From Gemmatimonadota bacterium (GTDB taxonomy: Bacteria > Gemmatimonadota > Gemmatimonadetes > Longimicrobiales > RSA9), in assembly GCA_040905425.1 (NCBI GenBank), contig JBBDRO010000031.1, positions 1-20,484 of the forward strand: a DNA stretch of 20,484 bases, written 5' to 3'. Shown piece by piece: positions 3,219 through 14,482 of this stretch (positions within the stretch are counted from its first letter, which is position 1; each line of letters starts with the position of its first letter). Both the position numbers and the translations under genes were made by a program. The notes under the pieces are model-generated. The model was not told where the DNA came from. It did no database searches and saw only the letters and a list, made by a program, of their open reading frames with translations.

Positions 3219-3731
3219 CTAGCGCTTCCTGCGGGTCTTCCTGGGCTCCTTCCGCGCGGGTTCCGGCTCCTCCTCCTTCTCCACCAGGATCGTCCCCCTG
3301 CAGTTGTCCGCGCCGCAGGCGCACGGGTAGAGCGCCCGGGCCTCCTCGTCGTGCTCGTCTTCCAGCTCGAAGTTGTAGTCGTAGGTGAGTTCCTCCCCCG
3401 GATAGATGGTGCGCATGGCCTCGATGAAGATGCGGCCATCCTCGTCCACCGCCTCGCAGTTCGGATCGCAGGAGTGGTTGATCAAGGACGCCTCGTTGCC
3501 TTCCCGGCCGCCGTCGATCACGGTCTCTTCGTCCACGCTGAAGAGGAACGTGTGGTGGCGCTCCATCTCATCGTCGGGGTAGCGCTCCTCCGCCTCCTCG
3601 TGGGAGATGCGCTCTCCCAGGTACTCGATGACACGCGTCCCCTTGCGAATCTGGTGGATGGCAAAGGCGCCCCGGCCCTGGATTGCGGAGCCGCGGATGA
3701 TGAAGGGCAGTTCCCGCTGGTGTCGAGCCAT
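3219..3731 (-). CDS. SET-domain protein-lysine methyltransferase with post-SET zinc motif
   Basis: SAIQGRGAFA, IEYLGE, INHSCDPNC, GEELTYDY, post-SET CACGADNCRG. Start placed at ATG 3731 (Met35 of ORF 3219..3833) because the upstream extension looks non-coding. Confidence 0.93.
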   Translation of the reverse strand: MARHQRELPFIIRGSAIQGRGAFAIHQIRKGTRVIEYLGERISHEEAEERYPDDEMERHHTFLFSVDEETVIDGGREGNEASLINHSCDPNCEAVDEDGRIFIEAMRTIYPGEELTYDYNFELEDEHDEEARALYPCACGADNCRGTILVEKEEEPEPARKEPRKTRRKR

Positions 3732-3909
3732 CGTTCCGTAATGCTTGTAAGGTGACCGGCCGCCGCACGAGCCGGACGGGCCGCGGCGGCGGCGCAGATT
3801 AGGGGCCGCGGGTCCCGCGCACCAGCCCTCCATGGCCTGGGTCCGCCTGCACGGCGGCTACGCCCCCTTGGCCCACGGCCCGGCACACAGCATGCACCAC
3901 GGGCGCCTC

Positions 3910-4851
3910 ATGATGAAATGGTATTTCGCGGGCATGGTTCTGCTGGCCCTGGCGCTGGCCGCGGCGCTGGGGCTCGTGGACGCGACCGACGGGACGGCGG
4001 ATGCCCCCCCACGGGCGCCGGGAGCCTCTGCCGTGGCAGATACGACGCGGGCGGATGCCTGCACGGTGGTCCGGCCGCCGACGCGCCTTGCGCGTGACGT
4101 CCGGGAGACGAGCGGGCTGGCGCTCGGCGCGGCGGGCGTGCTGTGGACCCACAACGATGCCGGTGGCCGGCCGGAACTCTACGGCTTCGATACCGCTGGC
4201 CGGCTGGTGGCGCACGTGGCGGTCACGGGCGCCCGGCTCACGGACTGGGAAGACATGGACGCGGCGCCGTGCGGCCAGGGAGCCTGCCTGTTCATCGGGG
4301 ACATCGGTGACAATGACGGCGTGCGCGACCACGTCACCATCTACCGGGTCCCCGAGCCGGAGAGCGGCCAGGAAGCCGTGCCCGCCACGGCCTACCACGC
4401 GCGCTACCCCGAGGGGCCGCAGGATGCGGAAGGCCTGATCGCCACCCCCGGCGGTGACCTCTTCATCCTCACGAAGGGGGCGCACGGGCCGGTCCGCCTC
4501 TACCGCATGCCGCGCAACCGGCAGGCGGGAGCCCTCCATCCGTTGGAGCTGGTGCGCGACGTGGCGCCGCGGCCGAACCGGAGGGGCAATCAGGTGAGCG
4601 CGGCCACCGCCAGCCAGGACGGCCGCTGGGCCGCCTTCCGCACCTACGACACCCTCTACTTCTTCGCGGCCGACGCGCTGTTCGGGTCGGCGCCCGCCGC
4701 GCCGGCCGCCACCTTCGATCTGCGGCCGCTGGGTGAGCCGCAGGGTGAGGCCCTGGCCCTCGGTACGGGGGGCGCGGTATGGCTCACGAGCGAGGCCGAA
4801 GGTGGCGGAGAACCCTTTCTCACCGGGCTTTCCTGTCCCTACGGAGGCTGA
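3910..4851 (+). CDS. Secreted beta-propeller protein (phytase/esterase-like or SdiA-regulated-like), function unknown
   Basis: Signal peptide MMKWYFAGMVLLALALAAA; repeated blade-like motifs ETSGLA, LWTHNDAG, DWEDM, IGDIGDN, DAEGL, QGEAL. Start chosen at ATG 3910 (ORF track starts at 3832). Confidence 0.72.
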   Translation: MMKWYFAGMVLLALALAAALGLVDATDGTADAPPRAPGASAVADTTRADACTVVRPPTRLARDVRETSGLALGAAGVLWTHNDAGGRPELYGFDTAGRLVAHVAVTGARLTDWEDMDAAPCGQGACLFIGDIGDNDGVRDHVTIYRVPEPESGQEAVPATAYHARYPEGPQDAEGLIATPGGDLFILTKGAHGPVRLYRMPRNRQAGALHPLELVRDVAPRPNRRGNQVSAATASQDGRWAAFRTYDTLYFFAADALFGSAPAAPAATFDLRPLGEPQGEALALGTGGAVWLTSEAEGGGEPFLTGLSCPYGG

Positions 4852-4872
4852 GCGTCCCATGCGGCAGAGGTC

Positions 4873-5946
4873 TTGCATGGGGAGGGCCGCTGTCACGTAT
4901 CAGAAAACCCGAACCCAGCAGCGCATTTGACGCGGAATCGAACCCACGCAGGCCGCCGGCCCAGGCACGTGCCGATCATCCGGTTCCTCGGGTACTACGC
5001 AGCGCTCGTGGGCGTAGCCGCCCTGCTGGCCACGTTCGTGCCGGCCGTGCAGCGCGCCTTCGTCTCGCCCATCGTGGTCCCGGGGATCGGCATGGACGCG
5101 GGCGCGCTGCTGGAGCCTGGCGCGCCGCTCACCGGCACACCGGCGGTGGCGCCAGGCCCATTCGGCGGCAGCCTGGAGCGCGCCCTGACCACGGCGCTCG
5201 TCAGTCTGGGCCTGCTCGCGCTCATCATGCCCGTGTCGTGGGTGTACATGTACACGCGGCGCTTCCGCTACGACCGGGCGCTCGTCCAGTCCATCATCAT
5301 CCTGCCGCTCGTGGTGGCCGGCATGGTGATGATCGTCAAGAACAGCCTGGCGCTGGCGTTCAGCCTGGCCGGCATCGTGGCCGCCGTACGTTTCCGCAAC
5401 ACGCTGAAGGACCCACGGGACGCCGTCTACATCTTCCTCTCGCTGGGGCTCGGACTGGCCGCCGGCGTGCAGGCGCTGGACATCGCGCTGGTGATGTCCC
5501 TCTCCTTCAACCTGGTGGTGCTGCTGCTCTGGCGCGTCAACTTCGGCGCGGTCTACAGCGGCGAGGAGGGCACGGGCGGCATGCTGGCCATCGGGGATCC
5601 CGGCCTGCGCCAGGCGCACACGCCGGACGCACGGCGGAAGCTCGTGGAGAGCTACGCGGAGGCTGCCCGTGACATCAAGGCGGACGGCATACTGCTGGCG
5701 TACGGCGTGGAGCCAGGCGCCGCGCGCACGGCCATCGAATCCGCCATCAGCGGCCTGGGCAAGGACTGGGTCTTCGTGGAACCCACGGCTGGGCACCACG
5801 GCGTGATCATGCTGCCCGCGCTGATCCGCTTCAAGAAGAAGGCATCACCCACTGACCTGCTGGCCGAGCTGGACGAGTACTGGGCCAGCCACGTGGCGGC
5901 CGCCGAGTACGTGCCTTTCACAACCGACGAGTATGACCGCAAATAG
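4873..5946 (+). CDS. DUF4956-domain inner-membrane protein
   Basis: Signature NSLALAFSLAGIVAAVRFRNTLKDPRDAVYIFLSLGLGLAAG; about 6 TM segments plus a soluble C-terminal alpha/beta domain. Start uncertain (TTG 4873; GTG 4969 is a plausible alternative). Confidence 0.88.
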   Translation: MHGEGRCHVSENPNPAAHLTRNRTHAGRRPRHVPIIRFLGYYAALVGVAALLATFVPAVQRAFVSPIVVPGIGMDAGALLEPGAPLTGTPAVAPGPFGGSLERALTTALVSLGLLALIMPVSWVYMYTRRFRYDRALVQSIIILPLVVAGMVMIVKNSLALAFSLAGIVAAVRFRNTLKDPRDAVYIFLSLGLGLAAGVQALDIALVMSLSFNLVVLLLWRVNFGAVYSGEEGTGGMLAIGDPGLRQAHTPDARRKLVESYAEAARDIKADGILLAYGVEPGAARTAIESAISGLGKDWVFVEPTAGHHGVIMLPALIRFKKKASPTDLLAELDEYWASHVAAAEYVPFTTDEYDRK

Positions 5947-8575
5947 GTCCGGCCACGGCTGGCGGGCCGCGTTGCTGTGCCTGGCCGGCGCGTGGCTCAC
6001 GACCCTCCCCGCCACCGCCCAGAAGCAGGACAGGCCCACCGCCGTGGCGGTGGCCGGGCCACAGTACGAGGCTCGGGCACTGCAGCGCCTGCTGCTGGGC
6101 GGCAACTGGCGTGTGCTCTGGACCACGCCGGTGCGTGTGCCCGTCCTGGACCTGGGCACGTACGCCGGCGGACTGGAGCCGTTCGAGGAGGGCGGCCGGC
6201 AGAGCAGGACGCTCCATTTCCGGACCCCGGACGAGCGGCGCTACATCTTCCGCTCGGTGGGCAAATACCTGCACCGGGAAGCCCTGCCGCCAGCGGTCCG
6301 CCATACGCTGATGGGGGACGTGATCCAGGACGGCATCAGCATGCTGTTGCCCGGCGTGGGCCTGATCATGGCTCCCCTGCAGGAAGCGGCCGGCGCGCTG
6401 CACAGCCCCTCCGAATTCGTGGTGATGCCGGATGACCCGCGCCTCGGCGAGTGGCGGGAGACGTTCGCCGGCATGCTCGGGCAGATCGAGGAGAACCCCG
6501 ACGAACTGCCGGATGACGAGCCGGGCTTCGCGGGCTCCCGCAAGGTGGTCAAGGCCGCGAGCATGCTGGAGCGGTTGGACGAATCCACGGAGCACCGGCT
6601 GCACAGCCGGGATTACCTGGCCCTCCGCCTGGTCGATTTCCTGGTCAACGATACGGATCGCGGCGGCGACCAGTGGAAGTTCGCCCGCTTTCCCGAGGGT
6701 GACCGATACGTGTGGCGTCCCGTGCCGCGCGACCACGACTTCGCGCTGCTGAAGTCGGGCGGGCTGTTCGGCTTCATCGCGCAACTGGGCTATCCAAAGC
6801 TGAGCTCCCTGGACGATGACTTTCCGTCACTGAAGACGCTCACCTTCATGACGCGGGACATGGACCGCCGCCTGCTGGCGGACATCCCCCGGCCGGCGTG
6901 GGACAGCGTGGTGAGCTCGCTGCAGACCGCGCTCACCGATGACGTCCTGGCCGCCTCCATCGGCCGCCTGCCAGCGGAGTACCAGCCGCACACCGGTGGT
7001 CTGGTGGCCACCCTCCGCGCGCGCCGGGACCGCCTCCATGAGGTGGCCGACGAATTCTACGCCATGGTGGCCACCGAGGCGGATGTCTTCACCACCGACG
7101 AGCCGGAGCGGGCCCGCGTGGAGCGCCTCGGCGATGGCGCCGTGAACGTAACGGTCACCAGCATCGAACACCCCGACCGAACGGTCTTCGAACGGCGCTT
7201 CGTACCCGGTGAGACCCGCGAGATCCGCCTCTTCATGCGCGGCGGAGACGACGAAGTCCTGGTCCACGGCTCGCCGGCTGAGGGCATCAAGCTGCGCGTC
7301 GTCGGCGGGGACGGGGCCGACGTGCTGGCGGATTCCGTGGCCGCCTCCAGCGGCGCCGCCACGACCCTGTATGCGGACGAGGATGACCGGGTGAGCGCTG
7401 CTGACGGCACCGAGGTGGACCGGCGGCCGTTCGAGCACACCGCGCCCGGCCGGCCGGAGGACCTCTACGGCATGTGCTGCGGTGAGGAGCCGGGGGACGA
7501 GGACCTGGAGGGCCAGGCCGGCAACGAGGACGTTGAGCGCAGGCTGGCCGGCGCGCGCTACCGCGACTGGGGCTCCACCGGCGGCTTCGGCCCCGTGGTC
7601 CAGCACCGCAGCGGGGTGGGCATCGTGTTGGGGGTGGCGCACACCCGCACGAGCTTCGGCTTCCGCCACGTACCGCACGAGTACACCATCGAGGCGCGGG
7701 CGCTCTATGGCGTGGAGAGCGGCAAGTTCGGAGCAGAATTGTTCGCGCAGTACCGCCCGGAGAACGCCTCGTGGGGGCTGGAGGCCGACGCGCACGCGTG
7801 GCAGTTCGAGTCCTTCCGCTTCTTCGGCTACGGCAATGACACGCCGGAGGACCTCACGGGCACTCGCGTCCATCGCGATGATGTGCTGCTGCGGCCCGCG
7901 CTCTTCTGGGAACGTGCCGCGGGGCGGCTCTCGGTGGGTCCCGTGGCCCGGTACGGGAAGCTGCGCTACGACGAGGGCAGCCTGATCGCGGGGGAGCAGC
8001 CGCTGGGCAGCGCTGCGTTGGGCCAGGTGGGCGCCTGGAGCCGGGCCGAACTGGCCATCGGCCCGCTGTCCGAAGCGCGCCCGGGCGGCATGCGCGTCGA
8101 ACTGGAGGGGGCGGGCTATCCCGCCGCGTGGGACGTGCCCGACGCCTTCAGCCGGATCGGCGGGCTGGTGCACGCCTTCCTGCCCGTGCCGGGTGCCGGC
8201 GCCACCTTCCTGGTCGTGCGGGGCGGCGGCGAGAAGCTCTTCGGCGATTTCCCGGTGCACGAGGCGGCGTTCCTGGGCGGCCGGCACACCCTGCGGGGCT
8301 ACGCCACGGACCGCTTTGCCGGGGATGCATCACTCTACGGCAGCACCCAGTTGCACGTGCCCCTGGGCACCATCGAGCTGCTCGTGCGCGGCCAGCTGGG
8401 CGCGTTCGGGCTGGCGGACGCCGGACGGGTGTACGTGGACGGCGCCTCGCCCGGCGGATGGCACACGGCGTTCGGCGGCGGGCTGCGCTTTGCCTCGCTG
8501 GGCCGGGCGGTCAGCGTGAGCTACGTGCAGGGTGAGGGCCGCCGCGTCTACCTGCGCATGGGACTGCCGTTCTGA
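5933..8575 (+). CDS. Omp85 (BamA/TamA superfamily) outer-membrane protein with N-terminal atypical-kinase-like domain
   Basis: Signal peptide; C-terminal barrel with the LGGRHTLRGY lid motif and terminal aromatic (..RMGLPF); N-terminal DFLVNDTDRGGDQW...PVPRDHDFAL resembles catalytic and Mg-binding loops of PI3/4K/HipA/CotH-type kinases; GGD(G)xD beta-roll-like linker. Overlaps the upstream CDS by 14 bp. Confidence 0.82.
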   Translation: MTANRSGHGWRAALLCLAGAWLTTLPATAQKQDRPTAVAVAGPQYEARALQRLLLGGNWRVLWTTPVRVPVLDLGTYAGGLEPFEEGGRQSRTLHFRTPDERRYIFRSVGKYLHREALPPAVRHTLMGDVIQDGISMLLPGVGLIMAPLQEAAGALHSPSEFVVMPDDPRLGEWRETFAGMLGQIEENPDELPDDEPGFAGSRKVVKAASMLERLDESTEHRLHSRDYLALRLVDFLVNDTDRGGDQWKFARFPEGDRYVWRPVPRDHDFALLKSGGLFGFIAQLGYPKLSSLDDDFPSLKTLTFMTRDMDRRLLADIPRPAWDSVVSSLQTALTDDVLAASIGRLPAEYQPHTGGLVATLRARRDRLHEVADEFYAMVATEADVFTTDEPERARVERLGDGAVNVTVTSIEHPDRTVFERRFVPGETREIRLFMRGGDDEVLVHGSPAEGIKLRVVGGDGADVLADSVAASSGAATTLYADEDDRVSAADGTEVDRRPFEHTAPGRPEDLYGMCCGEEPGDEDLEGQAGNEDVERRLAGARYRDWGSTGGFGPVVQHRSGVGIVLGVAHTRTSFGFRHVPHEYTIEARALYGVESGKFGAELFAQYRPENASWGLEADAHAWQFESFRFFGYGNDTPEDLTGTRVHRDDVLLRPALFWERAAGRLSVGPVARYGKLRYDEGSLIAGEQPLGSAALGQVGAWSRAELAIGPLSEARPGGMRVELEGAGYPAAWDVPDAFSRIGGLVHAFLPVPGAGATFLVVRGGGEKLFGDFPVHEAAFLGGRHTLRGYATDRFAGDASLYGSTQLHVPLGTIELLVRGQLGAFGLADAGRVYVDGASPGGWHTAFGGGLRFASLGRAVSVSYVQGEGRRVYLRMGLPF

Positions 8576-8577
8576 GC

Positions 8578-11500
8578 ATGATCAGCGATCGCGTCCTCCG
8601 TTTCATCGTGCCGGACCATGAGGCGCTCGGGCGCATTGCCACGGCGCCGCTGCCCCTGGAGCTGCACGAGGTGGGGGCGGATCTGGATGTCTTCCGCATT
8701 GTCTACTTCGACACCCGGGCGGGCGACCTGACACGCAAACGCGCCAGTGTGCGCCTGCGCATCCGGCCGGACGAGACGCAGCTGCTGCAGGTGGAGGTGG
8801 ATGCGCCGGCGGCGCGCGAGGATGGCGTGTTGCGGCGCCATGCGGAGGCCGATGTGCCGTCGCTGCCCGCCGCCGAGCTGTTCGCGGGCACCTCCGAGCC
8901 GGCCCGTATGCTGCGCGCGCTCGTGGACCCCGCGCACCTGAAGCCGGCCTTCGAGCTGGAGACGGTCCGGCAGGTACGGATGGCGGCGCCCGCGGCGGGA
9001 GGCGCGGAGACGATCCGTTTCTCCTTCGATGCCGTCACCGTACGCAAGGGCAACGTGAGCGGCGAGCTCCACGAGTTGGAGGTGGCCATCAAGGCCGGTG
9101 AGCCCGTGGGTTCCTACGACGGGCTGGTGGAGGACATCGAGCGCGCTTACGGCGTTCATCTCACGCTGGCGGACACGGTGGCGCGGGCGCGCCGGCTGCT
9201 GGACCAACTGATGCTGGACCGGCTGGAGCAGGACGTGCGCGGCGCGCGTGAAGTAGCCGTCGTCGCTTATCAAGGGGGCCGCATTGCCCTGGCGCGAAAC
9301 GGCAAGGAGCTGCGCATTCCCACGGGCCATGGTTCGGGGCAGGACGCCTGCCGGCGCGTGCTGCGCAACGTGTTCGGTAAGGCCTACGCGCGCATCCGTC
9401 TGCTGGGCACCAGTGCCGGCGTGGAGGCGCGGCCCGGTCTGGAGGTATGGCTGGCGGAGGGGCTCACCCACAACGACGGCGAGTGTGACTGGCTGCCGCT
9501 GGATGACGTCCTCGAGCGGGTGGGTTCGCCGCGCCTGCGGGATGCGCGTACGCTGGCCGCCCTGCACACCATCGCGCGCTCCGATCTGGCCGTGCGCGCG
9601 GCCAACGGCGGCGAGCCCACGGCCCGGGCTCCCGCCTACCCGATCTTCGCGCGGGCGGTATCCAAGGCCAAGGTGGACGCCATGCTCGAGCAGCCCGAAT
9701 CGGAGAAGGTGGCCTCCGAGCTGCTGCTCAACCCCGAACTCAGCCGGCTCTCCTTTGACGAGCGCATTCTCTTCATGGCCGAGGACGAGCACACGCCCCT
9801 CCTGGAGCGGGTGCGCTTCCTGTCCATGTTCGGCCAGCGGCTGGATGATTTCTTCATGACCCGGGTGGCCGAGTTCAAGCAGGAGTTGGCCGCAAAATCC
9901 ACGGAGACCACCCCGGACGGCCTGACCGCCGGCGAGCAGCTGGACGTGGTGCGGATCCGGGCGCGCCAGGTGGCGAGGCGCGCCTACCGGCTGCTCGGTG
10001 ACCAGCTGCTGCCCACCCTGGAAGCCAACGGCATCCACGTGCTGGGCTGGCAGGAACTGGGGGAGGAGGACCGCGCGCACCTGCGGCAGAACTTCACCGC
10101 CAAGGTGGAGGCGGTGACCACGCCGGTGATCGCGGACCCCACGCATCCCTTTCCCCACATCCGCAACCTGAGGCCGGCCCTTGCCGCCACGCTGCGGCTG
10201 CCCGAGAGCCGGGACGAGCACTTCGTGGCTATCGAGCTGCCCAGCGGGCTGCCGCGCTTCGTGCCGCTGCCCGACGGCCGCCGCTTCGTGCCGCTCGAGG
10301 ACATCATCCTGGCCTCGCTCCCGAACCTCTATCCGGGGCTGGAGCTGGTGCAGGCCAACACCTTCCGCGTGACGCGGAGCGGCGTCATCGAGCTGCAGGA
10401 GGAGCCGGCGGGCGGCGTGCTGAGCGCCATCGAGGAGGAGATCGAGCGGCGCCCGTTCGGTGACGTGGTCCGGCTGGAGGTGCAGAGCACCATGCCCGCC
10501 GCGGTGCGGGACCGGCTGCTGCGCGAGCTGCAGTACGAGCGGCCCGACGTGGAGTCCAACCTGTCGGTGGCGGACGTGCACGTGGTGGACGGTCTCGTGG
10601 ACCTGGCGGCGCTGCGGGAGCTGGGCGCACTGGAGGTGCCCGCCCTGCACTTCCCGGCGCAGGAGCACTACAGCCCCCTGGAGGCCGACCGACCGGTGCT
10701 GGACCAGATCCGCGAGGGGGACGTGCTGCTGCGTTTTCCGGAGCATTCCTTCGACGACACGCTCGAGCGCTTCATGGCGGAGGCGGCGGAGGACCCGGAC
10801 GTCGTGGCCATGAAGATCACGCTGTATCGCACCAACCCCGACTCCCGGCTGGTGCGCGCGCTGGCCGACGCCCGCAGCCAGGGCAAGGACGCCTTCGCGC
10901 TGGTGGAGCTGAAGGCCAGCTTCGACGAGCGGCGCAACATCGAGTGGGCGCGCTCGCTGCAGAACGCGGGCATCCACGTGGTCTTCAGTCCCGCCAACAT
11001 CAAGGTGCACGCCAAGATCGCCCTCGTCGTGCGCAGGGAGGAAGACGGCCTGCACCGCTACGTCTACATCGGCACGGGCAACCTGAACGCCGCCACCGCG
11101 CGGGCCTACACGGACGTGGGGCTGCTGTCCTCCCGTCCCGAGCTGGGGGAGGAGGTGAGCGCGGTCTTCAACCTGCTCACGGCCTACTCCGGGGATCGCA
11201 CCTTCGAGCACCTGCTCGTCTCACCCTTCACCATGCGGCCGCGCTTCCTGCAGTTGATCGAGCGCGAGATCGAGCACGCCAAGGCGGGCCGCGAGGCATA
11301 CATCCGGGCGCAGATGAACGGCCTGGCCGATCGTCGGCTGATCGCCGCCCTCTACCGGGCGTCGCACGCCGGCGTGCGCATCGACATGGCGGTGCGGGAG
11401 ATCTGCTGCCTGCGCCCCGGCGTGCCGGGCCTTTCGGAGCACATCCGCGTGGTCAGCGTGCTCGGCCGCTTCCTGCAGCATTCACGCATCTTCTATTTCC

Positions 11501-11712
11501 ACAATGCGGGTGAGCCCGAGTACTTCCTGGGCTCCGCGGACTGGCGGCCGCGCAACCTGTCCAAGCGCGTGGAGGTGGCCACGCCCATCATCGAACCGGC
11601 GCACCGCGCCGTGCTCGACGAGATGCTGGAAGGCGTCCTCCGCCATCCGGAGGCGTGGGAGCTCACCGGTGACGGCACCCTGGTGCGCGGGGACGACGTG
11701 GTGGCCATCTGA
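8578..11712 (+). CDS. ppk1: Polyphosphate kinase 1 with N-terminal CYTH-like and NUDIX-like domains
   Basis: PPK1 from about aa 382: NPELS.LSF, PLLERVRFL, HPFPHI, KITLYRT, KVHAK (phospho-His, aa 811), GTGNLN, AYTD, RFLQHSRIF, GSADW, RNL..RVEV. aa 1-210 CYTH-like (YFDT...L....SVRLR, DAV, ELEV); aa about 222-340 NUDIX-like. Starts 2 bp after the previous stop. Confidence 0.93.
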   Translation: MISDRVLRFIVPDHEALGRIATAPLPLELHEVGADLDVFRIVYFDTRAGDLTRKRASVRLRIRPDETQLLQVEVDAPAAREDGVLRRHAEADVPSLPAAELFAGTSEPARMLRALVDPAHLKPAFELETVRQVRMAAPAAGGAETIRFSFDAVTVRKGNVSGELHELEVAIKAGEPVGSYDGLVEDIERAYGVHLTLADTVARARRLLDQLMLDRLEQDVRGAREVAVVAYQGGRIALARNGKELRIPTGHGSGQDACRRVLRNVFGKAYARIRLLGTSAGVEARPGLEVWLAEGLTHNDGECDWLPLDDVLERVGSPRLRDARTLAALHTIARSDLAVRAANGGEPTARAPAYPIFARAVSKAKVDAMLEQPESEKVASELLLNPELSRLSFDERILFMAEDEHTPLLERVRFLSMFGQRLDDFFMTRVAEFKQELAAKSTETTPDGLTAGEQLDVVRIRARQVARRAYRLLGDQLLPTLEANGIHVLGWQELGEEDRAHLRQNFTAKVEAVTTPVIADPTHPFPHIRNLRPALAATLRLPESRDEHFVAIELPSGLPRFVPLPDGRRFVPLEDIILASLPNLYPGLELVQANTFRVTRSGVIELQEEPAGGVLSAIEEEIERRPFGDVVRLEVQSTMPAAVRDRLLRELQYERPDVESNLSVADVHVVDGLVDLAALRELGALEVPALHFPAQEHYSPLEADRPVLDQIREGDVLLRFPEHSFDDTLERFMAEAAEDPDVVAMKITLYRTNPDSRLVRALADARSQGKDAFALVELKASFDERRNIEWARSLQNAGIHVVFSPANIKVHAKIALVVRREEDGLHRYVYIGTGNLNAATARAYTDVGLLSSRPELGEEVSAVFNLLTAYSGDRTFEHLLVSPFTMRPRFLQLIEREIEHAKAGREAYIRAQMNGLADRRLIAALYRASHAGVRIDMAVREICCLRPGVPGLSEHIRVVSVLGRFLQHSRIFYFHNAGEPEYFLGSADWRPRNLSKRVEVATPIIEPAHRAVLDEMLEGVLRHPEAWELTGDGTLVRGDDVVAI

Positions 11713-11721
11713 GCCGGTGCG

Positions 11722-12129
11722 TCAGTCCCGCCTGCGCAGGCGGAGGCGCACGGTCGGCACCGAATCACGGGTGACGATCACGCGGGAGCCGGCGATGCCC
11801 GCGTCGCGGAGCGCCCGACCGGCACGGCCGAGCGCCGCGGTATCCGCCCCGAGCACCTCCACGTCGAGCAGCGGGTAGCGCGCCAGCAGCGGCGCCACGA
11901 GCATGGCGCCGATCACCACCGCGGAGCTGTTCAGCGCCAGGCCCAGGGTGGCAATGGCCCCGGACAGGATCAGGATCGACCAGTAGGGCAGGTCATTGTC
12001 CACCGCCGCGGCGGCCGTCTCCTGGAAGATCAGCGGTCAATCCCACCGCCCCACGCCGAGCTGCTCGCCCGCGGCGTCCTCGATGGCGCTCGGCTGATCC
12101 GCTTCGGAGCTGCTCGCTTTCGACGCCAT
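11722..12129 (-). pseudogene. Disrupted DUF389 (TIGR00341-like) membrane protein gene
   Basis: One frame from ATG 12129 reads MASK...GVGRWD*PLIFQETAAAAVDNDLPYWSILILSGAIATLGLALNSSAVVIGAMLVAPLL..., with an in-frame TGA at 12037-12039. The IATLGL..NS.AVVIGAMLVAPL signature is followed at once by a short soluble tail, so most TM helices are missing. Confidence 0.82.
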
Positions 12130-12337
12130 GGGCAGACCTCTGTGGAGGGGAATCGGACGTCCCCGAAGCACGAACCGTACCCCGCTCCCGCACCCGTGCG
12201 GTCCTTTGGCAGCGCCACCGCGCTGGACCCGGCGGCGTCGGGGGCGTATCGTTTTGCATCCCTCGGAGCTTCGCCGCCGCCCCCCGGGGCCGGCGCGGTC
12301 ACATGGCACCCTCCCCCAGAGCAGGAGCCGCCCGCTG

Positions 12338-14482
12338 ATGGCCACCACCGCGGCCGCAGGCACCACCGGGTCCGATCCGCAGGCCGTCCGCCGGGCGGCC
12401 ATCGAGCTCGTGGTAGTCTCCTTCATCGTGCTCTTTCAGGAGCTGGCGCTCATCCGCTGGCTGCCGGGGCAGGTGCGGGTGGCCGCCTACTTCCCGAACC
12501 TGGTGCTCATCAGCGCGTTCCTGGGCCTGGGGCTCGGCAGCCTGCGCGCGCGGCGGGCCAGCCTCCTGTGGACATGGCCGGTGAGCCTGCTGGCGCTGGT
12601 GGCCGGCGCCCTGTGGGCCAGCGGCATTGCCTTCACGAGCAATCCGGAGACCGAGCACCTCTGGCTGCTCTACGCGGATCTGCCGGAAGGGGCGCGGGTG
12701 GTGGACGGGGTGCGCCTGCCGATCGTGGCTTTCTTCGTGCTCTCGGCAACGAGCTTCGTGGCGCTGGGACAGGTGGTGGCCGCGCGGCTGCTGGCGCTCC
12801 GTGACAGCCTCGGGGCGCTGCGCGGCTACGCCCTGGACCTCACCGGCTCCCTGCTCGGCGTGACGGCGTTCGCGCTCGCGGCGCTCCTGCTGAGCGCGCC
12901 CTGGGTGTGGTTCACCACCTTCCTGCTGGCCGGACTGGTCCTGTTCCGCGGGCGGCGCCGCTCCGGCGCTCTCTACGTGGCCTGCGCGGCGGCCGTACTG
13001 ACCCTGGTTGTGGTGGGTGAGCGGGCCAGCTACTACAGCCCCTATTACGCGCTCAGCGTACGTGACCTGGGGGAGGGCGCGCTGGCCGTGGAGACGAACG
13101 GCTCGCTGCACCAGGTGGCACTCCCCATGAGGCGCGGCGACGGGGGCAGCAATCCGCTCCACACCCAGGTGCGCGCCGGCTACCACCTGCCCTTCCGCTA
13201 CCTGGATGCCCCGCCCAAGCGCGCCCTGGTGCTCGGCGCCGGCACGGGCAACGACGTGGCCGTGCTGCTGGACGAGGGCGTGGAGCGGGTGGACGCGGTG
13301 GAGATCGATCCGGTCATCCTGGACATCGGGCGCATTGCCCACCCCAATCGCCCCTACGACTCGGAGCGCGTGCGGGTGTTCAATACGGACGCGCGCTCGT
13401 TCCTGAACCACGGCACGGAGCTCTATGACCTGATCGTGTTCGGCACGCTGGACTCCATGACCCGGCTGTCCGCGCTCTCCAACGTGCGCCTGGACAATTT
13501 TGTCTACACGCAGGAGTCCATCGATGCCGCCCGCGCGCGGCTGGCGCCGGGCGGCGGCATGGCGCTCTACTTCATGTCCTCCACGTCCTACATCGACGAT
13601 CACCTGGCCGCCATGCTGACCCGCGCCTTCGGCACGCCGCCGGCGCTGCACGCCAACTACTACCAGCTCTTCAACCGCCTCTACCTGACCGGGGACGCGT
13701 TCGCCCATGTGGGTGCCGAACCCGGCTGGAGCCGGCCGGACGGCGCGGCCGCGGCGGTGGTGCCGAGCGACGACTGGCCGTTCCTCTACCTGGCCGAGCG
13801 CACCGTCACGCCCTTCTACCTGTCCCTGATCGCCATCTTCCTGGCCCTGGCCGTGGCCGGCATCTTCGCCGCCTCTCCGGAGATGCGGGCCTCGCTGGGC
13901 ACTCGGGGCGGGGTGGACGCCGAGATGTTCCTCTTCGGGCTGGCGTTCCTGCTGCTGGAGACGCACTTCGTCACGGCCATCAACCTGGTGTGGGGGGCCA
14001 CCTGGCTCACCAGCGCCGTGGTGTTCGGCTCCATCCTGGCCATGGTGCTCATGGCCACACTGCTCACGCACGTCCGCCCGCTCACCTACCGGCTGGCCGC
14101 CACCGGACTGGTCGGATCCCTGCTCGTGGCCTACTTCATTCCCGTGGACGCGCTGCTGCTGGCCAACCCGCTGGCGCGCCTGGCGGCGTCCGTGCTCTAC
14201 GTGGGCGTGCCCATCTTCTTTGCCGCCGTATGCTTCGCGGTGCGCTTCAACACACGCTCGGCGGTGGACGTGGCCTTCGGCTGGAACCTGCTCGGCGCGG
14301 TGGCCGGCGGGCTGCTCGAGTTCCTGGGCATGGCTACCGGCCTGAAGGCGCTTACGCTGGTGGCGGTGGCCGCCTACCTGCTGGCCTTCGCGCTGGCCGC
14401 GCGCCGCGGCGACCCCACGCCGGTGCCGCCCGCTCCGACACCCCGGTCGGCCGCTCCCGAGCCGCTGCCGGCGGGCGGATGA
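12338..14482 (+). CDS. Multi-pass membrane protein with a spermidine-synthase-like class I SAM-binding domain
   Basis: About 7 N-terminal TMs; central RALVLGAGTGNDVA, VDAVEIDP, TDARSF, YDLIVFG, PGGG; SDDWPFLYL; about 6 C-terminal TMs. ATG 12338 has AGGAG upstream. Confidence 0.85.
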   Translation: MATTAAAGTTGSDPQAVRRAAIELVVVSFIVLFQELALIRWLPGQVRVAAYFPNLVLISAFLGLGLGSLRARRASLLWTWPVSLLALVAGALWASGIAFTSNPETEHLWLLYADLPEGARVVDGVRLPIVAFFVLSATSFVALGQVVAARLLALRDSLGALRGYALDLTGSLLGVTAFALAALLLSAPWVWFTTFLLAGLVLFRGRRRSGALYVACAAAVLTLVVVGERASYYSPYYALSVRDLGEGALAVETNGSLHQVALPMRRGDGGSNPLHTQVRAGYHLPFRYLDAPPKRALVLGAGTGNDVAVLLDEGVERVDAVEIDPVILDIGRIAHPNRPYDSERVRVFNTDARSFLNHGTELYDLIVFGTLDSMTRLSALSNVRLDNFVYTQESIDAARARLAPGGGMALYFMSSTSYIDDHLAAMLTRAFGTPPALHANYYQLFNRLYLTGDAFAHVGAEPGWSRPDGAAAAVVPSDDWPFLYLAERTVTPFYLSLIAIFLALAVAGIFAASPEMRASLGTRGGVDAEMFLFGLAFLLLETHFVTAINLVWGATWLTSAVVFGSILAMVLMATLLTHVRPLTYRLAATGLVGSLLVAYFIPVDALLLANPLARLAASVLYVGVPIFFAAVCFAVRFNTRSAVDVAFGWNLLGAVAGGLLEFLGMATGLKALTLVAVAAYLLAFALAARRGDPTPVPPAPTPRSAAPEPLPAGG

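Follow-up and report, generated by a model that had tools for sequence, protein, structure and literature searches.

A PPK1-DUF4956 gene module with a kinase-fold, putative outer-membrane protein in Gemmatimonadota, and its likeness to VTC-DUF4956-CotH cassettes

Gene content of the locus

The window analysed here is the entire 20,484-bp contig JBBDRO010000031.1 of a Gemmatimonadota bacterium from sediment (genome 4.12 Mb, 96.7% complete, G+C ~70%), and the named relatives of its proteins belong to Gemmatimonadota, chiefly Longimicrobiales. Four co-directional open reading frames (ORFs) on the + strand encode a propeller, a DUF4956 membrane protein, an 880-amino-acid (aa) barrel protein and a 1044-aa fusion protein that ends in polyphosphate kinase 1 (PPK1). 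The DUF4956 gene overlaps the barrel gene by exactly 14 bp (5933 vs 5946) and a gap of exactly 2 bp (8575 to 8578) separates the barrel gene from the PPK1 fusion gene, just as the initial annotation of this DNA had described. These genes recur together across the phylum, and we give an even chance to the reading in which all four belong to a single conserved module of the envelope that would feed polyphosphate chemistry outward and would match the VTC-DUF4956-CotH cassette, with PPK1 as its polymerase. The genes of the module and the domains of their products are as follows.

3910-4851 (alternative start at 3832), + strand: probable six-bladed beta-propeller resembling YjiK, SdiA-regulated and phytase-like proteins; fourth, accessory member of the module
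4969-5946 (ORF open from 4873; likely start GTG 4969, by homologue alignment), + strand: DUF4956 inner-membrane protein, 325 aa (PF16316)
5933-8575, + strand: barrel protein, 880 aa, probably of the outer membrane
5933-6019, + strand: signal peptide of the barrel protein, MTANRSGHGWRAALLCLAGAWLTTLPATA/QKQ, with a presumed cleavage site
6035-7132, + strand: residues 35-400 of the barrel protein, CotH/PI4KII-like atypical kinase-fold domain (predicted structure)
7133-7564, + strand: residues 401-544, beta-rich linker with two GGxGxD-like motifs (alignment)
7565-8575, + strand: residues ~545-880, putative C-terminal Omp85/ShlB-type beta-barrel (sequence profiles)
8578-11712, + strand: CYTH-Nudix-PPK1 fusion, 1044 aa
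8578-9207, + strand: residues 1-210 of the fusion, CYTH / triphosphate-tunnel fold domain (CYTH profile and predicted structure)
9244-9603, + strand: residues 223-342, Nudix-fold domain (predicted structure)
9718-11712, + strand: complete PPK1 with N, middle, C1 and C2 domains (Pfam, TIGR03705)

Linkage of the module genes

The distribution of the module genes was followed in 121 evenly drawn Gemmatimonadota genomes, where DUF4956 is found in 54/121, PPK1 in 97/121, the kinase-barrel N-domain in 35/121 (a count that includes the unpublished G057, on which no other result rests), the CYTH-Nudix extension in 23/121, VTC in 7/121 and CotH in 6/121, with CotH in 20/401 genomes of a wider sample. 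DUF4956 occurs over the Pfam cut-off at 62 places in the 121 genomes, which were tallied by hand, a PPK1 gene being counted as a neighbour when it lies within 8 kb on the same strand. A polyphosphate polymerase is a neighbour at 30 of these 62 places; at seven it is VTC, which always adjoins a short form of DUF4956 and is accompanied by CotH at four, and at 23 it is PPK1, made up of 19 of the CYTH type and four in-frame fusions with DUF4956. As a genome of ~3.5 Mb has one PPK1 gene or two, adjacency by chance is expected at ~1%, and the linkage of the module genes is far above this; counted from the other partner, 19 of the 23 genomes with a CYTH-PPK1 have it adjoining DUF4956. An exported kinase-like gene adjoins DUF4956 at 44/62 places (CotH at 4, a putative kinase here termed family S at 23, the barrel type at 17), a propeller does so at 14/62, and at 7/62 no partner was found or the contig ends.

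Anchoring on the barrel gene instead gave 74 loci, from contigs of one genome per species. DUF4956, barrel and CYTH-PPK1 are ordered as in the window in 12 of them, which is the recurrence that the initial annotation had asked about. Furthermore, PPK1 lies beside the barrel gene in 16 of these loci and DUF4956 is nearby in 22, with no DUF4956 match near the barrel in 52; loci outside these groups hold paralogous barrel genes in other contexts. As an independent check 80 metagenome loci anchored on DUF4956 were taken, and a partner gene is present in 60 of these; amongst the 20 with DUF4956 alone, 17 have less than 1.5 kb of downstream sequence. With D for DUF4956, R for the propeller, O for the barrel, CP for CYTH-PPK1 and S for family S, the gene orders in the metagenome loci include D-O-CP (12 loci), D-R-O (13 loci, 3 with a convergent PPK1) and S-D-CP. 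A mutual exclusion of PPK1-type and VTC-type cassettes, which the initial annotation had raised, does not hold, as genomes G110, G103 and G096 carry both. Extra envelope genes accompany VTC-DUF4956 cassettes of the phylum at L089 (G103), where a DUF2490 gene follows DUF4956, and at L094 (G020), where a gene for an HlyD-type adaptor precedes VTC.

Nearly all of the DUF4956 genes that at first seem solitary are followed by family S, a secreted domain of ~280 aa that is present in 39/121 genomes and in which four cysteines are invariant, its motifs being IGNTDWS..LHN..PxxYDFDWSG (loci L098, L100-L105, L107-L111 and L146-L169, for example L102:7645-8466). One of 12 members matched CotH at E 0.009, with hhalign values of 6.5-11.6%; no other Pfam or NCBIfam match was found among the 12 members, and a sequence-profile search of the PDB was empty. 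Family S is a new exported family, for which the label kinase-like is putative.

Exported metallophosphoesterases also recur with the module (L086 ~8402-9850 on the - strand, L090:1968-3065 and P0398), one lying between DUF4956 and CYTH-PPK1 and one upstream of a DUF4956-CotH-VTC cassette. P0398 is a single protein of 1335 aa that unites a metallophosphoesterase, a kinase domain and an Omp85 barrel.

Fusions of DUF4956 to PPK1

In four genomes one uninterrupted ORF joins the membrane part of DUF4956 to a complete PPK1. A database search with the fused N-terminus returned 72 proteins, 67 of which contain PF16316 together with PPK1 domains; most of the fusions are 913-954 aa long, and seven of 1255-1319 aa have the layout DUF4956-CYTH-PPK1. 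In public records they are labelled plainly as polyphosphate kinase 1. Because these natural in-frame fusions join both proteins, it is strongly suggested that PPK1 docks on DUF4956 in the unfused form as well, and we regard physical coupling of PPK1 to DUF4956 as likely. Two further candidate fusions, P0275 (DUF4956-propeller) and P0276 (DUF4956-S-type), were rejected: in each, the sequence runs through an Arg-rich, apparently out-of-frame stretch into a new signal peptide. Two neighbouring genes were probably called as one in these cases, which still show adjacency.

A midpoint-rooted tree of 96 PPK1 catalytic regions, thinned beforehand by 19 CYTH types that were derived from loci and redundant and by 37 randomly chosen members of the 62 fused proteins, places the CYTH-type, fused and doubly fused forms in one clade of 72 sequences with a Shimodaira-Hasegawa-like support of 1.0. 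The 24 short PPK1s fall outside this coupled clade, and the fused forms are nested within it (support 1.0 and 0.992). The initial annotation had proposed that the locus is a rewired, PPK1-based cassette, a suggestion borne out here, and the coupling of DUF4956 to PPK1 extends to in-frame fusion.

The DUF4956 membrane protein

The DUF4956 protein scores 43.6 bits against PF16316 (cut-off 30.6), over profile positions 5-107, which cover the membrane part only. Hydropathy gives about six predicted membrane helices within residues 1-193 and a soluble tail from residue 194 to 325, the tail being without a Pfam or NCBIfam match, and the start at GTG 4969 agrees with the starts of homologues. Among 37 forms, linked to VTC, linked to PPK1 or fused, residues R141-F142-R143, D151, G162 and G166 are each kept in 35-37, and by positive-inside reasoning the Arg-Phe-Arg loop would lie on the cytoplasmic side. 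When compared with transporter families nothing exceeded the threshold, the matches being weak and confined to membrane helices, and a sequence-profile search found no relative in the PDB, so that no solved structure constrains the function.

The kinase-fold protein with a putative Omp85 barrel

The N-terminal domain of the barrel protein had been called kinase-like in the initial annotation, a label that finds no sequence-family support: there is no Pfam or NCBIfam match, the CotH family PF08757 is unmatched even at E 5, and the sequence-profile search of the PDB was empty. The predicted structure does provide such support. A model of residues 35-400, built from 79 homologues, has a predicted local distance difference test (pLDDT) of 93.5 and a predicted template modelling score of 0.91, and Foldseek returned 51 PDB matches at E<=1e-3, all listed rows of which are kinases, led by Bacillus cereus CotH (E 9.3e-6), CtkA and PI4KIIalpha. 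Comparison with VIA gave Z 15.1 to PI4KIIbeta (root-mean-square deviation, rmsd, 4.6 over 260 aligned residues) and Z 14.6 to CotH (rmsd 3.9, 244 aligned), and a search independent of Foldseek against 48,161 representative chains placed CotH 5jda_A first at Z 14.3, with kinases in 49 of the 50 rows shown. As modelled, the domain is confirmed to have the bilobal CotH/PI4KII kinase fold, which fits the suggestion that a barrel-anchored kinase-like domain would take the place of CotH.

Conserved residues of this domain are F106-R107-S108..K111, D133, D240-x-D242-R243..D246-Q247 and D267-x-D269; on the model, the kinase elements may correspond to a strand with R107/K111, D133 in the next helix, D242-R243..D246-Q247 and D267-x-D269. 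Profile-profile comparisons among the barrel-type domain, family S and CotH gave probabilities of 0.2 to 11.6%, none of them significant; that the two Asp motifs stand in register in 7 of the 10 top profile alignments is a hint only. Atlas feature neighbours of the domain were CotH, HipA, Fam20C and LepB_N at 0.76-0.77, under the counting level, a lead which the fold searches later matched. The family of the kinase-fold domain is unnamed, and it is large: a threshold of E<=1e-3 gives 3436 representative clusters, and one of E<=1e-30 gives 1726.

Between this domain and the barrel lies a linker, residues 401-544, that matched no family, and at the sequence level a POTRA domain was not detected; D440, G446, G459, D463 and D467 are conserved in this linker, whose GGxGxD-like motifs recall calcium-binding repeats. 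The C-terminus matches the NCBIfam model Omp85_fam over residues 779-854 at E 4e-10 (39.7 against a cut-off of 200), and the protein matches ShlB at E 0.013 and Omp85 at E 0.27, both below the cut-offs, with a further weak match to PDB entry 9ccg. Among 16 full-length homologues, Pfam Omp85 is matched in 13 (best E 2.3e-10) and ShlB in 15.

The CYTH-Nudix-PPK1 fusion

All four PPK1 domains match Pfam at E 1e-27 to 3e-60, the score against TIGR03705 is 676.6 (cut-off 465.85), and PDB structures of PPK1 are matched at E 1e-160. Ahead of the PPK1 lies a CYTH domain that exceeds the cut-off of PF01928 (28.8 bits, cut-off 23.2) and matches YgiF (5a60) by profile at E 6.6e-4 and 0.0025. In a model of residues 1-375 of the fusion (pLDDT 85.8) this domain matches YgiF in Foldseek at E 1.1e-10, and VIA gives Z 14.4 to 2gfg_A, 13.5 to YgiF and 11.7 to Vtc4 3g3q. 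The Nudix fold is seen in the model, whilst Pfam is silent on it: PF00293 (NUDIX) has 7 places over the genome at E<=10 and none within the window. VIA aligns it to DR2204 (2w4e_B) at Z 13.7 (rmsd 2.6, 117 residues), followed by many ADP-ribose pyrophosphatases, and the name NUDIX given to it in the initial annotation is thereby justified.

The CYTH family is recognised by an N-terminal, metal-binding ExExK signature. An alignment of 33 fusions has E/D4-x-V6-x-R8 in its place, with the second glutamate gone, and so the earlier description of this domain as degenerate applies; it applies to the Nudix box too. The Nudix box consensus is GX5EX7REUXEEXGU, and in the fusion R260-V-L-R-N-V..G267 stands in place of REUxEExG, the catalytic glutamates being gone, which suggests that the Nudix domain is inactive.

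The propeller

The propeller protein has a hydrophobic N-terminal signal and is predicted to be secreted. It scores 21.8 bits against Pfam Phytase-like, under the cut-off of 27.6; its profile (A6) matches the designed Pizza6 propellers at E 1.5e-5 and Escherichia coli YjiK (3qqz) at E 0.012, and its Atlas feature neighbours are SdiA-regulated proteins at 0.87-0.89. Many acidic residues are invariant in the family, in which respect it may resemble calcium-binding propellers. The propeller is present in 13 fetched loci, in the gene orders D-R-O, D-CP-R-O and D-O-CP-R, and across the 121 genomes 15 of the 17 strongest matches to its profile adjoin DUF4956, barrel or PPK1 genes. It is because its strong matches adjoin these genes in varying orders that the propeller is counted as a member of the module.

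Neighbouring genes

The following genes lie around the module.

105-2012, + strand: biosynthetic arginine decarboxylase, upstream of the module
3219-3833, - strand: SET-domain gene (PF00856 E 2e-25), the divergent neighbour upstream
11722-12003, - strand: doubtful 93-aa ORF downstream of the module, without a family match
12128-14482, + strand: 784-aa polytopic membrane protein, one domain of which is SpeE-like (aminopropyltransferase or methyltransferase); first clear gene after the module, and co-directional

The initial annotation had the module bounded by a divergent and a convergent gene. The SET-domain gene is indeed divergent, but on the other side the convergent position is held only by the doubtful 93-aa ORF, the first ~40 residues of which resemble the start of a polytopic membrane protein before they diverge, and which is probably a gene remnant. 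The SET-domain protein itself has a weak, far sub-threshold likeness to a Legionella AnkI/LegAS4 model. Polyamine genes (105-2012 and 12128-14482) thus flank the polyphosphate module on both sides, an arrangement that does not recur in related loci; when conserved flanking genes beyond the module were sought in these loci none was found to recur, the flanks varying from one locus to the next. A scan for promoters and terminators was uninformative, with one promoter-like site (on the - strand) and four terminator-like sites where 2.1 are expected. Elsewhere in the genome (96.7% complete) there is no match to VTC (PF09359), CotH or PPK2, and the sole Ppx/GppA match is sub-threshold (25.5 bits, threshold 27).

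Proposed function and alternatives

In the mechanism that we propose, a dedicated PPK1 lineage would make polyphosphate from ATP whilst docked on the cytoplasmic face of DUF4956, the PPK1 of the window carrying in addition a CYTH tunnel domain and a presumably inactive Nudix domain. Through DUF4956 the polyanion, or phosphoryl groups from it, would reach the periplasm, where the CotH/PI4KII-type kinase domain, anchored in the outer membrane by its putative Omp85 barrel, would use or handle polyphosphate, with the secreted calcium-type propeller acting alongside it. We have little hesitation in regarding the genes as a real functional module; that polyphosphate actually reaches the extracytoplasmic partners is a good deal less secure, and we lean slightly against it, as both the passage through the membrane and the use of polyphosphate as substrate or donor by an exported kinase go beyond the linkage and the folds. 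The most explicit form of the proposal would have PPK1, on or fused to DUF4956, threading polyphosphate into the periplasm, where exported enzymes of the CotH/PI4KII fold use it instead of ATP and the propeller and metallophosphoesterases trim the polymer; in this form the kinase targets would lie in the envelope or at the surface, and elsewhere the soluble S family or CotH would replace the barrel-bound kinase. We put this form forward as a speculation, and one that is probably wrong in at least some of its steps.

A number of observations weigh against an outward passage of polyphosphate. A polyphosphate pore in DUF4956 would go beyond any solved or predicted fold. The model and alignment of the kinase domain suggest that Arg replaces Lys at the presumed nucleotide-binding strand position, and comparison of this domain with CotH by hhalign gave 0.2-2.7% and was never significant. 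The barrel-type domain occurs without any DUF4956 being seen in 7 of its 35 genomes. The four loci L146-L149 have an S gene next to CYTH-PPK1 and lack DUF4956 in the vicinity, and three of the genomes concerned show no DUF4956 anywhere; the initial annotation had the chain handed on to DUF4956, which as stated does not fit these loci, where CYTH-PPK1 is coupled straight to a gene of the exported kinase-like kind. It had also cast the CYTH tunnel as a stand-in for VTC. This part is not supported as stated, as the CYTH profile has no specific VTC likeness (hhalign against the VTC profile, 1.5%) and the domain is dispensable; the CYTH-Nudix module is missing from most DUF4956-PPK1 fusions and from the Gemmatimonas locus L075, where barrel, DUF4956, PPK1 and propeller genes are present, and therefore is no obligatory hand-off device. 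Furthermore, the genome has a single PF13090 match, so that the PPK1 of the window is its sole PPK1 and the only polyphosphate synthase found, and for this reason it must also serve cytoplasmic needs. Finally, the fusion loci L079-L081 (G109, G112 and G093) are small polyphosphate islands, in which a CHAD protein, a histidine phosphatase, PPX and a second PPK1 of the short kind are also encoded, and PPX and CHAD are proteins of cytoplasmic granules.

Much of this would be expected if DUF4956 did no more than tether and regulate PPK1, for example through a ligand sensed by the soluble tail, and polyphosphate stayed in the cytoplasm. The exported propeller, kinase-barrel and phosphoesterases would then be co-regulated phosphate-scavenging or envelope enzymes acting on other substrates, with which a propeller of phytase-like or YjiK-like type and the recurrence of exported metallophosphoesterases (L086, L090, P0398) are in keeping, as are the sole PPK1, the cytoplasmic polyphosphate metabolism indicated by PPX, CHAD and histidine phosphatase at the fusion loci, and the S-to-CYTH-PPK1 pairs without DUF4956. 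Tethering, however, leaves it unexplained that VTC and PPK1, as polymerases unrelated to each other, should share one membrane protein as their partner, in which the Arg-Phe-Arg loop is conserved whether the partner is VTC or PPK1. Nor does it account for the translational coupling, for exported kinase-fold neighbours at 44 of the 62 DUF4956 places, or for how an exported kinase would be fed, as we know of no obvious nucleotide supply for exported kinases. We consider tethering alone to be unlikely, albeit the alternative that most deserves attention.

It would seem improbable that DUF4956 instead assists the polymerase as a channel for ions or phosphate, supplying phosphate, Mg2+/Ca2+ counter-ions or charge balance whilst the exported partners handle the same ions. 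DUF4956 is small and polytopic with conserved charged loop residues, it lacks a solved relative that would constrain its function, and the acidic residues of the propeller may be those of a calcium-binding protein, all of which would suit a channel, but no similarity to a transporter family exceeds the threshold, and the fusion of a whole polymerase would be more easily explained by a conduit for its product. Least probable by far is that the clustering is purely historical, the neighbours having no shared function. Flanking genes do vary between loci, and members of the barrel family are found without DUF4956 close by too, at the 52 of 74 loci given above; against this, the partners recur, variously ordered, in different families of the phylum and again in the independent metagenome sample, in-frame fusions exist, and the coupled PPK1s form a clade of their own.

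Should the proposed envelope module prove correct, bacteria with two membranes would have a dedicated route for polyphosphate chemistry outside the cytoplasm, and the PPK1 of a polyphosphate-accumulating phylum would be recast as, in part, an envelope enzyme. According to abstracts in the literature searched, extracellular polyphosphate is secreted or accumulated by some bacteria, but no route is named there. The module makes two questions testable, the placement of extracytoplasmic polyphosphate and the phosphoryl donor of exported kinases, and offers defined handles on them: a single membrane protein that is found with VTC or with PPK1, polyphosphate polymerases unrelated to each other; natural DUF4956-PPK1 fusions, in which the stoichiometry is fixed; and the large unnamed family of kinase-fold domains.

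Comparison with known systems

The one literature collection searched held no description of a DUF4956-PPK1, CYTH-Nudix-PPK1 or kinase-Omp85 protein. Two papers (10.1101/768473; 10.1101/2024.04.20.589940) describe cotH, a polyphosphate polymerase and DUF4956 as accessory genes of pel loci, with a role that is unknown; these papers and the loci found here agree with the initial annotation that DUF4956 genes sit with VTC and CotH. This Gram-positive cassette, of Streptococcus, Clostridium and Bifidobacterium, has in common with the window a polymerase, DUF4956 and an exported kinase of the CotH fold, and a cassette of the pel-locus type is also present in 7/121 Gemmatimonadota genomes, with CotH adjoining in four. 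The window differs from it in that the polymerase is PPK1 and not a VTC/TTM enzyme, a propeller is added, the kinase domain belongs to another sequence family and is joined to a putative Omp85 barrel, and DUF4956 is a long form with its own tail.

The precedent for the proposed mechanism is yeast VTC, in which, according to PMC9911596, translocation and synthesis are coupled, the polymerase being seated on a channel with a lining of basic residues. The eukaryotic complex (Vtc4/Vtc3/Vtc1) resembles the fused DUF4956-PPK1 layout in having a polymerase joined to membrane helices; the likeness is one of overall layout, and the fold of the CYTH domain of the window is similar to that of the Vtc4 tunnel (Z 11.7). 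However, the genome of the window has no VTC domain, catalysis would come from PPK1, and the CYTH domain lacks ExExK and compares with the VTC profile at 1.5%.

Bacillus CotH and human PI4KII share the fold of the window domain at Z 14.3-15.1 over 244-260 residues. The two conserved Asp motifs of the window domain are 25 residues apart, and the catalytic D228 and D251 of B. subtilis CotH are 23 residues apart, as given in PMC7821199. Unlike these kinases, the window domain has no Pfam CotH match, appears to have Arg at the presumed nucleotide strand, is exported and is fused to a putative barrel. In PlpD-type (type Vd) Omp85 proteins an N-terminal enzyme domain, a patatin lipase, is followed by a C-terminal barrel; the layout predicted for the window, an enzyme-type domain and then a barrel, is the same, whereas the passenger in the window is of kinase fold and no POTRA domain is detected by sequence. 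Finally, the PPK1 of the window has all four domains of E. coli Ppk (PDB 1xdo), but differs in its 380-residue CYTH-Nudix extension, its place in a separate, membrane-coupled clade and its setting in an envelope operon.

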